Source of the DNA: an uncultured bacterium
Lineage (GTDB): Bacteria > Babelota > Babeliae > Babelales > Vermiphilaceae
Length of the DNA stretch: 64,000 bases
Direction: 5' to 3'
Assembly (NCBI GenBank): GCA_963713925.1
Contig: OY970212.1
Coordinates: forward strand, 1,120,001 to 1,184,000
Shown here: positions 1,039 to 5,667 of the stretch, piece after piece
How the letters are laid out: every line of letters begins with the position of its first letter
Numbering within the stretch: position 1 is the stretch's first letter
The notes under the pieces: model-generated
Seen by the model: the letters and a program-made list of their open reading frames with translations, nothing else
Database searches by the model: none
What the model was told of the DNA's origin: nothing
Translations under genes and position numbers: made by a program

Positions 1039-1095
1039 TAGAAGTTTATTTTTTTTGGAGTTTATCAGAAAATCTCGGAAGTTCCTTATTGCTAC

Positions 1096-1209
1096 GTCAT
1101 CCTGAATTTATTTCAGGATCTACTTAACCTGGATCCAGCCTTCGCTTATCCAGGCTTTCAGGCTTGGTAAGCTACGGCGGACAAGTTGCTGAAACAAGTT
1201 CAGCGCGAC
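1096..1209 (+). repeat. Palindromic repeat family D (RPE-like double hairpin), interrupted by a family A copy at about 1135-1185
   Basis: GTCATCCTGAATTTATTTCAGGATC...TGCTGAAACAAGTTCAGCGCGAC; uninterrupted reverse-complement copy at 34369-34429. Confidence 0.8.
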
Positions 1210-1260
1210 AACCAACCCTTGTATGTTAAAAATTGATTCAAATTTTGATAGATAATGTAT

Positions 1261-1444
1261 TAATTTGTGATCGGTATATTGTTTCACAAATTAGTTGCTC
1301 GGGAAAAGCTGATAGAGCTCGCGCCAACCCTAATCGTAATCGATTGCTAAAAAGTTTGAGACTATCAGCTTATACGAAATTACCTCGAACAATTACTAGA
1401 GGCGTATTAATACGACCTCGAATGTTTACAAGGATGAGGTATTT
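1261..1444 (+). ncRNA. IS110 bridge RNA (5' stem-loop + target-binding loop + donor-binding loop); exact 5' end unknown
   Basis: Stems 1261-1270/1284-1293, 1306-1315/1362-1371 and 1381-1386/1436-1441, with internal loops matching target and donor sequences. Confidence 0.85.
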
Positions 1445-2386
1445 ATGATTACCCTACCAGAAGTATTTATCGGCGTCGATATTTCAAAGAACAATTTGGA
1501 CATTTTTATTCATCCGTTGAAGCAATGGGTTAAAATACCCAATACAGAAAGCGGAATAAAAAAGTTTGTGAAGCAATTATCCAATTACAGTATTAAGCAA
1601 ATTGCATGTGAGGCAACCGGTGGTTACGAAAAATTGCTTACTCGGGTATTACAGGAACATTCCTATAGTTGTTGGATAGTTGATCCACGGAGGATAAAGG
1701 GTTTTATAATCGCAACTGGTTGCAAAAGCAAAACAGACAAAATAGATGCACAAAAAATTGCTGAATTTGCATCGAAGAATTCTCAAGATTATGAGCCAGT
1801 CAGCAGAACTCATAACCAAGAAACATTGCTATCTTTGGTTAATCGAAAGCAGGATTTGACCAAATTTTTGGCAACTGAAAAAACTCGACTTAAACACCCC
1901 TCGCATGCACTCGGTGTTTCAAGTATCGAAAGAATGATCCTCTTTTTAAATAAAGAAATCAAGGCTTTGGATGAACAAATTGAAGAATTGATTGATCAAG
2001 ATGCGGTACTGCAGAAACGGACAGAGCTTTTGGAATCAATCCCGGGAATCGGTAAATCTTCGGCCGCGATATTGATTTCGTTTGTGCCTGAACTTGGATC
2101 TGTAAGCAATAATGAAATAGCAGCCCTTGTCGGAGTTTGTCCTTACGATCGAGAAAGTGGCAACTATACAGGCAAACGGTTCATTCAAGGCGGTAGGATT
2201 ATTCCTCGAAATGCATTATATATGTGTGCTATAACGACTATTAAGTATTATGCTCCTTTAAAATCCTTTTATGATCGACTAATAGCAAACAAAAAAAGCT
2301 TTAAAGTAGCTATTGTTGCAGTAATGCGAAAGCTGATCATCATTGCAAATGTTATCTTGAAAAAGGGCGAAGTATGTAGTGCTTAA
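1445..2386 (+). CDS. IS110-family DEDD recombinase/transposase
   Basis: FIGVDISK, CEATGGY, KTDKIDA (DEDD); SIPGIG; C-terminal GVCPYDRESG catalytic-Ser motif; AVMRKL. Confidence 0.97.
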   Translation: MITLPEVFIGVDISKNNLDIFIHPLKQWVKIPNTESGIKKFVKQLSNYSIKQIACEATGGYEKLLTRVLQEHSYSCWIVDPRRIKGFIIATGCKSKTDKIDAQKIAEFASKNSQDYEPVSRTHNQETLLSLVNRKQDLTKFLATEKTRLKHPSHALGVSSIERMILFLNKEIKALDEQIEELIDQDAVLQKRTELLESIPGIGKSSAAILISFVPELGSVSNNEIAALVGVCPYDRESGNYTGKRFIQGGRIIPRNALYMCAITTIKYYAPLKSFYDRLIANKKSFKVAIVAVMRKLIIIANVILKKGEVCSA

Positions 2387-2447
2387 AAATTAATTGACTT
2401 TTAACACAATTACTTTTTAGTTAGAAAACTTAATTTTCGTACAAGCA

Positions 2448-3281
2448 CTAAAACCGAATAACCGCCGTCATACGATTGAGTTCATCTTGGTATTCTTGGA
2501 GCAGTGTTTTATATTTTTTCTCACGAAGCGCCATCTCAATTTCATCATGTCGCTCTTCAAGCGGCACGGGGCGACGCGGCAAAAGACTCACCGATTTAAA
2601 GAGTTCAAAGAAATCGCCGTGCTTAACAATCTTTATTTGCCCAGGTTTAAGCTTGCAAATAAATTGCTTATCTTCGGCTACTTCCGATTCCTTAATCCAG
2701 AATGGATCAGACCACGAGATAGTCACCGTCTGATCGGTTATTTTCTTCTGCAACTCTTTTACTGTCTTTGCTACATCAAAGCCGGTTGCAGCTCTTTTGA
2801 CCTCATAGGAAGGCTCAAGATATTGTGGGTTTTCATTCCAGTAGATTTCCATTTCACGTTTTGAGACCGTCAAACGGCTCATAATGCGAAACCCAGTGAC
2901 CTGGTTAACCCCAGTCATAACCTTAAACTGATCTTTACCTTCTTCTAAAGTATAGCCACCGGAAGTAAATATTGATTCCAACTCTTTATCACTTAAGTTA
3001 TTTTCTCGTTTAATTTCTTTCAATTGGCGCTCAACAGCATCTTCATCGACCATTTTAAACTTTTCGGCATCCATAAACATCTGACATTCCCGGGTGCGAT
3101 TCTCCAGGGAATGCATCCGGCCATCAATGCCCGGGCGATTGACATCTGATTTGGTTATAACGTCAGTTCTTTCAGGCCCAACGACTACGGCACTAATTGA
3201 ATCGAGCTCAACTGCCCCCTGCGGGAGGGCACATATTCTCAAGGCAGTTGCTAGAATAAGAAAGAGACAGCGTATGTTCAT
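2448..3281 (-). CDS. SurA-like periplasmic chaperone/foldase
   Basis: Signal peptide, LDSISAVV...VITKSDV SurA N-domain pattern, degenerate parvulin region. Confidence 0.7.
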   Translation of the reverse strand: MNIRCLFLILATALRICALPQGAVELDSISAVVVGPERTDVITKSDVNRPGIDGRMHSLENRTRECQMFMDAEKFKMVDEDAVERQLKEIKRENNLSDKELESIFTSGGYTLEEGKDQFKVMTGVNQVTGFRIMSRLTVSKREMEIYWNENPQYLEPSYEVKRAATGFDVAKTVKELQKKITDQTVTISWSDPFWIKESEVAEDKQFICKLKPGQIKIVKHGDFFELFKSVSLLPRRPVPLEERHDEIEMALREKKYKTLLQEYQDELNRMTAVIRF

Positions 3282-4449: not shown

Positions 4450-4620
4450 ACACGTCCTTTTGTTATAATACCGTTGATTTTTGAAAATTGATTTAATGCT
4501 AGCATGAATCAATCGAGTGCTCAAGAATCAACCCTACTTTGCCAAAGGCTTTATCCCAAATTTTATTGGGACTCAGGCTTCGTAGGGCAGGCCCCCACAA
4601 ATCAGGAAAAGGAATCCATC

Positions 4621-5667
4621 TTGAAAAATGCAATCCGATTTATTTCAATTTTCAGTTCTTTTTGCTCATTTACATTGTTTTCGGCAGATATACCGAATAA
4701 CGATAATTCAATTGGTGGAATGGTAGGGAATGTCGTTAAAGTAGCTCTCAACAAAGCAACCAGAAAGATTTACAAAACACTCGATCCAAACTTAATCATA
4801 GATGACACTGCCACAACAAGAGGCGTCATTGAAAAGGGGTATCAAATTGTTGATAATCTGTCCGTAAGCAAGAAAGCAACTATTACTGCAAGCGATTTTG
4901 AAACATTTAAGCAAATTGGTGAAAGAGCAGATGCAATGGCATTAAGCACTCATCAAGCAGTGACTGCTACTGGAGGATTGCAAAAATTAAACAGCTTTTT
5001 ATTGTATCCCAACGACGAAGTTCTTGTTCCTATCATTCGTGAGATCATCGAAGCGTATGTAAAGCAAGCAAAAGCGATCAGTGAAGATTGTCTACTACAA
5101 CCACTCGCACAACAGCCATCGCCGAGAAAAGAAGAAAAGCAATTAACACCAGACAATGATAATTCAATTTCCGGGATGTTATGGGACATAGGAAAAGCAA
5201 CAATCAATAAAGCGAGTAGAAAGATTTCAAAAACACTCGATCCAAACTTAATCATAGATGACAAAGTTACAACAAAAGGTGTCATTGAAAAAGCAAAGCA
5301 AATTATTGTTAGTCTTTCTTCGAGCAAAAAAGCAACCGTTACTGCAAGCGATTTTGAAACATTTAAGCAAATTGGTGAAAGAGCTTACACAATCGCGTTG
5401 GGCTCACATCAAGCTATGGGCACTCCGGGGGGCTTGCGGAAATTGAACGAATTTCTAGCACCTCCCAATGATGCGCTTATCCCTCCTATCATTTATAAGA
5501 CCATCGAAGCATATGTAAAGCAAGCAAAGGCAATCAGTGAAGACTGTTTACCAAAACCACAACCGACTGTGAATTCCACATCAACACTGAAACCGGCGGC
5601 CACAAACCCTTTGTTTGAATCACCACCGACGTCTCCACGGCAACAACAAAAACCGGCGAAAAAGTAG
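4621..5667 (+). CDS. Secreted hypothetical protein with an internally duplicated domain of about 135 aa
   Basis: TTG start after AAGGA; signal peptide; two copies of NDNSIxGM...KTLDPNLIIDD...AYVKQAKAISEDCL. Confidence 0.75.
   Translation: MKNAIRFISIFSSFCSFTLFSADIPNNDNSIGGMVGNVVKVALNKATRKIYKTLDPNLIIDDTATTRGVIEKGYQIVDNLSVSKKATITASDFETFKQIGERADAMALSTHQAVTATGGLQKLNSFLLYPNDEVLVPIIREIIEAYVKQAKAISEDCLLQPLAQQPSPRKEEKQLTPDNDNSISGMLWDIGKATINKASRKISKTLDPNLIIDDKVTTKGVIEKAKQIIVSLSSSKKATVTASDFETFKQIGERAYTIALGSHQAMGTPGGLRKLNEFLAPPNDALIPPIIYKTIEAYVKQAKAISEDCLPKPQPTVNSTSTLKPAATNPLFESPPTSPRQQQKPAKK

Follow-up and report, generated by a model that had tools for sequence, protein, structure and literature searches.

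The window analysed here is a stretch of 64,000 nucleotides from the genome of an uncultured bacterium of the Babelota. Near its beginning we found an insertion sequence that runs from CT to CT on the plus strand (1218-2414). An earlier note on this DNA had given its extent as 1212..2420; the CT boundaries held, but the start lies at 1218 and not at 1212, because two further copies in the same genome share identical ends and have different flanks. The features of the element are the following, all on the plus strand.

1218..2414, IS110 element, 1197 bp counting both CT cores, with three genomic copies
1218..1219, left CT core, with the right donor next to it (1220-1224)
1222..1227, -10-like hexamer TATGTT, whose -35 partner lies solely across the circle junction (pattern only)
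1261..1293, 10-bp 5' hairpin of the predicted bridge RNA, which the alignment of 18 orthologous left ends does not show as conserved
1306..1371, predicted target-binding loop: outer stem, loop and inner hairpin (1332-1345)
1323..1331, left target guide, 9 nt with the core
1348..1354, right target guide, 7 nt with the core; 1347 is complementary too, without covariation in orthologs
1355..1356, target-loop handshake bases, the first pairing with donor position 7 (rule from PMC11208158)
1381..1441, predicted donor-binding loop: outer stem and inner stem-loop
1389..1397, left donor guide
1422..1432, right donor guide, either contiguous (1427-1432) or discontinuous (1422-1423 plus 1428-1432)
1433..1434, donor-loop handshake bases, the first pairing with target position 7
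1436..1439, GAGG, the 3' strand of the donor-loop stem and a likely ribosome-binding site, 5 nt before the ATG
1445..2386, IS110 recombinase, 313 aa (PF01548, PF02371, NF033542), with D12/E56/D98/D101 and S238
2394..2399, -35-like hexamer TTGACT, 17 nt from the -10 hexamer after joining of the ends (pattern only)
2406..2414, right CT core preceded by the 7-nt left donor

The recombinase scored above the cut-offs of both PF01548 and PF02371 and reached 197.7 against NF033542 (cut-off 140). Its residues D12, E56, D98, D101 and S238 were invariant in 50 of 50 aligned homologues (50 aligned of 120 matches listed), and they align with D11, E60, D102, D105 and S241 of IS621, whose catalytic residues are named in PMC11208158. 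The frame is complete with all five, in keeping with the description of the element as intact in the earlier note. By sequence, ISCro4 and IS621 alone were recovered as relatives of solved structure (2 of the 177,635 sequences searched), and ISCro4/IS622 was the best match (E 1.8e-38; ~32% identity). The structure model had a pLDDT of 86.6, falling below 50 only at 236-248 (the serine loop), and it agreed with 8wt9 and 9t56 at TM 0.80-0.81 and 31-32% identity. The closest other protein among the matches listed was 72% identical, and one homologue of 65% identity was labelled Candidatus Dependentiae. A 71-aa frame (1233-1448) over the left end was judged incidental.

The recombinase domains, the catalytic residues, the ends and the RNA loops all fit the IS110 group (IS621-type) of the IS110 family. 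The layout of the IS1111 group, in which a long right end carries the RNA and the left end is short, was not seen: the predicted RNA lies in the left end, and the right end has just 28 nt. Sub-terminal inverted repeats measure 7-17 bp in the IS1111 group and 2-3 bp in the IS110 group. The window element has an 8-bp inverted repeat, longer than the latter, that flanks the donor 14-mer, overlaps the promoter spacer and the -10 hexamer, and is imperfect in some orthologs.

Three near-identical copies of the element, 1197 bp each, were present in the window genome (1.32 Mb, one contig, 95.75% complete), at C1:1121218-1122414, 1277391-1276195 and 679641-678445. They differed from each other at 0-2 of 1197 bases (0-0.17%); both differences fell in third codon positions, the encoded protein was the same in all, and 12 runs of at least five bases had the same length in all three. 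CT stood at both ends in every copy, with a left end of 227 nt. Among the public runs listed for the element none was an RNA run; contigs assembled from two DNA runs covered parts of it and held no circle joint, which was no evidence either way.

Guides, handshake bases and covariation

The five helices that the earlier note had drawn were all at their places. The 1255-1450 segment folded into two stems with internal loops, preceded by a 5' hairpin, at a z of -3.6; none of 200 shuffles was equally stable. The minimum-energy structure had a few weak pairs within both loops, but in the ensemble the guide stretches were 65-87% unpaired and the stems 98% paired. When the fold was extended into the coding region, the donor loop was rearranged. 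An Rfam search of 900-2600 gave six weak matches, none near a gathering score, and no bridge-RNA model turned up.

Every quoted guide word was likewise found where it had been reported. The left target guide GCCAACCCT (1323-1331) matches the left flank (1211-1219) at 8 of 9 bases, the odd pair being rG:dT; one of the other copies has a flank that matches this guide at 9 of 9, and the remaining two copies carry the rG:dT pair at position 1. CTAAAAAG (1347-1354) is the reverse complement of 2413-2420. In the donor loop, ACAATTACT (1389-1397) is identical to 2406-2414, and TACAAG (1427-1432) is the reverse complement of 1218-1223. The right donor guide may consist of two parts (1422-1423 plus 1428-1432), as it does in IS621, instead of one unbroken 6-mer. 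In the window, neither handshake base is complementary to the substrate of its own loop, and in both loops the second one is unpaired. When the left end was shuffled 20,000 times with its dinucleotides preserved, the individual guide words arose at 0.0003, 0.06, 0.001 and 0.04, and three of the four together never.

Ortholog loci numbered 128 with a match, of which 50 were near full length at at least 37% identity; matches were found in 19 of 261 genomes of the phylum. Both ends were parsed at 33 of these 50 loci (17 were dropped), yielding 22 distinct left ends, and 18 of the 22 were aligned, the four most distant being left out. Single-protein locus scans returned one locus in genome contigs and none in metagenomes. 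The guides were taken from alignment columns in a register set by the RNA's own CT. One copy was scored per system, in G156 the worst-matching one; in L013, where the left end is duplicated over 18 bases, the outer end was used.

Across the 18 ends, the left target guide matched its own flank at 81 of 126 positions (permuted mean 38.5), and positions 10-14 of the right target guide did so at 68 of 90 (permuted 32.1); neither value was reached in 20,000 permutations. Without the window sequence the counts were 75/119 and 63/85, again at 0/20,000. The donor-loop handshake base agreed with target position 7 in 16 of 18 (permuted 7.5; 1/20,000) and the target-loop handshake base with donor position 7 in 17 of 18. 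The left donor guide gave 125/126 matches over nine distinct guides, and the right donor guide was complementary and nearly invariant. Related sequences are not independent, but all 18 left guides differed from one another, as did 17 right guides. The guide matches dropped at target positions 1-2 (5/18 and 9/18) and 14 (8/18). Several orthologs match their left flanks poorly (e.g., L002, L013, L017, L032), so the family tolerates left mismatches. The four conserved helices also showed compensation, with 17 of 25 stem pairs changing on both sides; 93.7% of cells were paired versus 32-38% for slid controls, the structure having been derived from the same alignment.

The right target match had been described earlier as a long, 8-nt one. 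The complementarity of 1347-1354 is present, but it consists of the standard 7 nt (core plus five) and one base that does not covary: position 15 matched in 2 of 18 orthologs, where 4.0 were expected, and an 8-nt right guide was rejected as a family feature. For this element alone the two lengths cannot be separated, because all three perfect 14-mers in its genome carry G at position 15.

We also weighed whether chance, or relics of duplication, could explain the loop matches, the protein alone choosing the site. The donor guides hardly vary in the clade and thus offer little covariation evidence by themselves. However, 18 different left and 17 different right guides vary with the flanks of their own elements, the handshake base changes along with target position 7, and the shuffles never produced three of the four guide words; we regard this explanation as extremely improbable. 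The extra copies, the covariation, the handshake fit, the compensatory stems, the junction promoter pattern and the catalytic residues instead point, at the level of sequence, to the IS621-type bridge RNA that the earlier note had proposed, and the element is very probably an intact and recently active one of this type.

Some orthologs showed peculiarities. In alignment A2 (columns 130-141), the 9-nt left guide shifts by one base within a loop strand of fixed length, the linker base standing before or after it. In L013 (G120:C9) the first 18 bases of the left end are tandemly duplicated, giving two right-donor junctions. L032 (G156:C6:254017-254946) is one of five copies; its site fits chiefly the right guide and appears to lie within an integrase-like coding sequence. 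The other four G156 copies sit in one REP, which would make L032 a natural off-target insertion. L039, L031 and L021 (G073) have TT for CT at the right core, two of the three at the left core too, with a right guide ending in AA, a possible natural change of core.

The host MITE and the occupancy of its target sites

The flanks of the three IS110 copies belong to a MITE family with 25 copies in the window genome. Around the window copy its features are as follows, again on the plus strand.

1058..1073, terminal inverted repeat at the left end of the host MITE, worn, with 3 mismatches to the consensus
1096..1120, first REP-like hairpin of the MITE, a repeat that also flanks a small GIY-YIG gene elsewhere in the genome
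1135..1185, second hairpin-repeat module, found in long MITE variants and free-standing elsewhere
1188..1209, second REP of the MITE in inverted orientation, separated from the target by 1 base
1211..1217, host sequence forming the left target (positions 1-7)
2415..2419, host sequence forming the right target (positions 10-14)
2433..2448, terminal inverted repeat at the right end of the MITE, with 3 mismatches and then TAA

Both 16-bp terminal repeats were found in 21 of the 25 copies, 140-315 bp apart, and 14 of these 21 had identical 3-bp flanks (10 TTA, 3 TAA and 1 TTC). The repeat thus fits a MITE in being short and multi-copy, with terminal inverted repeats and target duplications and no transposase. 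Its interior holds two REP-like hairpins in opposite orientation and optional extra hairpin modules. All three insertions lie at the same position, 1 base past the second REP, in the non-hairpin subterminal arm. The element does have a target of its own, as the earlier note had stated; what that note missed is that this target is a fixed position in a multi-copy MITE and not a unique site.

The probable origin of the MITE was found in relatives. A search of 261 genomes of the phylum gave 60 others with matches, among the matches listed only partial ones, chiefly to the REP. Of 15 regions at terminal-repeat matches, three (G014, G232) hold ~880-bp elements that share this 16-bp end and contain an IS5-type frame, and both of the two proteins tested pass NF033580. 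The MITE ends share 16 of 16 bases with these IS5-family elements, and the T-W-A flanks are the same. They are likely, judging from sequence, to be the parent of the MITE, which unlike them has no transposase; an IS5/DDE transposase was not found in the window genome (95.75% complete). At L154 and L155 (G014) there are three IS5-family copies, two of which look frameshifted close to their start. Further MITEs, 145-175 bp long (L158, L159 and L164, in G201, G257 and G056), have the same IS5-type 16-bp ends and different REP cargo, so within the phylum IS5-type ends repeatedly capture hairpin repeats.

Among the three occupied MITEs, 11-16 aligned bases differ (~8%), and a 53-base indel also separates two of the pairs. 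Since the host repeats diverge while the IS copies barely differ, the element entered each MITE separately, and the earlier description of it as recently inserted agrees with this. The alternative would be a single insertion, after which the MITE-plus-IS unit moved or was duplicated as a whole, so that the occupancy of perfect sites was inherited. Around the IS, two of the three host MITEs still have both of their ends, with 3-bp duplications that match (TAA, TTA), so an IS5 enzyme could in principle move such a composite. Nevertheless, host repeats ~8% and a 53-base module apart, as against 0-0.17% for the IS, largely refute it; target position 1 also differs between the copies, and the genome (95.75% complete) yielded no IS5 transposase. 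We consider this alternative very improbable.

Sites were counted after in silico removal of the IS, with A or G allowed at position 1. The genome contained three perfect 14-mer targets, and all three were occupied. Genome-wide, 7, 11 and 13 sites match 13, 12 and 11 positions, with no occupied site besides those three; none of the 10 sites matching only positions 1-11 to 1-13 was occupied, nor any of the other 22 MITE copies. Eight of these 22 empty MITEs have a single mismatch, at positions 2, 9, 12 and 13 and, in four of them, at 14; the four at position 14 stem from a longer T-run. Clean excision would leave a perfect site empty, and the genome showed no such site. The guides having been read from the window copy, two copies are independent in the occupancy test, and the chance of the observed occupancy given the window copy was 1/36 among MITEs matching positions 1-11 and 1/66 genome-wide (1/276 for all copies). 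These counts support pairing out to target position 14, in a small sample in which the T-run lengths of the empty MITEs come from assembly only and could include errors.

Since no perfect 14-mer occurs outside the MITE in the window genome, these sites cannot separate recognition of the 14-mer alone from a reading in which targeting is RNA-guided but also needs the REP hairpin or MITE structure. That all insertions lie 1 base beyond the second REP agrees with such a need for structure, as do the many ortholog targets in hairpin repeats and the 5' target stem-loop of ISPpu10, reported to raise specificity (10.64898/2026.03.19.712850). Yet the REP of one occupied copy (B) is a variant that has lost this hairpin fold, the 14-mer is weakly paired in single-stranded DNA folds, and the sequence match alone separates the three occupied MITEs from the 22 empty ones. 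We think it rather unlikely that structure is required in addition to the 14-mer.

Several neighbouring observations were made. The host MITE of the window copy lies between convergent genes, right after a terminator-like hairpin (~1003-1035), and its right end (window 2433-2451) abuts the TAG with which the minus-strand gene at 2448-3281 stops. Further on, a 387-aa frame (4504-5667) without a Pfam match consists of two similar halves of ~140 residues each. Elsewhere in the genome, a 103-aa stand-alone GIY-YIG gene (C1:104377, in G000:C1:104203-104827, L135) has the MITE REP on both sides, and its 3' end together with the right repeat appears duplicated upstream; such a REP-flanked GIY-YIG layout is known from Ssn nucleases (PMC11893778). 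Another three small GIY-YIG genes (C1:141659, 353985 and 1102706) each lie between other hairpin repeats, as Ssn-like units. In the MITEs at G000:C1:992821 and 908935 (coordinates after IS removal), a different short palindrome stands at or next to the IS110 target position.

Proposed cycle and relation to described elements

On joining of the ends, the -35-like and -10-like hexamers would form a candidate promoter. The pattern was present across the joined ends of the window element and of 18/18 ortholog ends, with a 17-nt spacer in 17, though the anchors that locate the ends contain these hexamers. A scan of the linear element found no promoter on the coding strand, as expected if the promoter forms only on the circle. 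By analogy with IS621 (PMC11208160, PMC11208158, PMC13626964), read-through would yield a little RNA and enzyme, rare excision would join the ends into a circle, and the circle would build a promoter across the CT core that gives an RNA of ~200 nt from the left end. Recombinase on the donor loop would hold the circle junction and recombinase on the target loop would find the 14-bp MITE site; strand exchange would occur at CT, with the handshake bases favouring insertion. With its guide programmed against the subterminal arm of a MITE, the element lands in selfish DNA between genes. It appears to read the target over all 14 positions, and it has filled every perfect site in its genome. A different route, copy-out by half matches rather than clean excision, is proposed in 10.64898/2026.08.31.748434. 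We hold with high confidence that this is a recently active bridge-RNA element, a reading built on its boundaries, recombinase, fold, guides, handshakes and three independent MITE insertions, the steps of the cycle being borrowed from IS621.

In the predicted RNA, the GAGG closing the donor loop is 99% paired. It is present in 16 of 18 ortholog ends and stands 5-8 nt ahead of the first ATG in 14 of 18. The guide fold and the start of translation may therefore compete through it; a literature search on the Shine-Dalgarno sequence or ribosome-binding site with IS110 bridge RNA returned nothing evidently about such competition. A more speculative scheme, which we put forward as possible but doubtful, adds a natural on/off gate: all 14 positions would be read so strictly that a one-base slip of the T-run shuts the landing site (five T usable; four, six and eight not), every usable site is filled, and the element would spread only by a MITE slipping back or by mutation of its guide. 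In the same scheme, the donor-loop stem would hide the ribosome-binding site of the recombinase, so that one transcript serves as guide or as message, limiting synthesis of the enzyme.

The closest described system is IS621 of E. coli (PMC11208160, PMC11208158; PDB 8wt6/8wt9). Both have a long left end, a two-loop RNA, 9-nt left guides, a CT core in all four pairings, handshake bases, a junction promoter (here as a pattern only), a DEDD plus serine active site and insertion into intergenic repeats. Unlike IS621, to which its protein is ~31% identical, the window element has its own target, placed in the non-hairpin arm of a MITE beside the REP, and a donor flanked by the 8-bp inverted repeat. 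Its right target guide natively has 7 nt, whereas wild-type IS621 pairs 4 nt, although longer right guides in natural orthologues were already stated in PMC11208160. With ISCro4/IS622 (10.1101/2025.05.14.653916; PDB 9t56) it shares a 14-base target and donor, the CT core and handshake guides; the 14-base recognition is given there for IS622. That study screened 72 orthologues, and neither Dependentiae nor Babel occurs in its main text.

Insertion into REP-bearing repeats also has precedents. Coxiella IS1111 occupies a fixed position of the REP-bearing MITE QMITE2 (20/21 copies; PMC5896051) as an IS110-family element; it differs in belonging to the IS1111 group, in carrying its RNA in the right end and in targeting the GTAG REP itself, and guide pairing is not analysed in the accessible text of PMC5896051. 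ISPpu10 of Pseudomonas putida (10.64898/2026.03.19.712850) is similar in its IS110 group, CT core, multi-copy repeat target and strict right and looser left guide. Its target stem-loop includes the left target, whereas the hairpin closest to the window 14-mer lies upstream of it and has changed in one of the occupied copies. The architecture, the CT core, the handshake rule and REP/MITE targeting are thus already published, and no new mechanism is involved. We found no paper on IS110 in Dependentiae or on an insertion sequence in Babelota, and the supplements of ortholog screens could list the clade.

This compact (313 aa), intact bridge recombinase, with ~31% identity to IS621/IS622, is a good candidate for ortholog screens, its donor, target, boundaries and handshake bases being fixed by three natural copies. 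The natural mismatch series (eight empty single-mismatch versus three filled perfect sites) hints at high specificity to position 14, a reach that had to be engineered into IS621. The clade itself, with 18 ends, a near-constant donor and 18 different left guides, shows natural retargeting to different host repeats.
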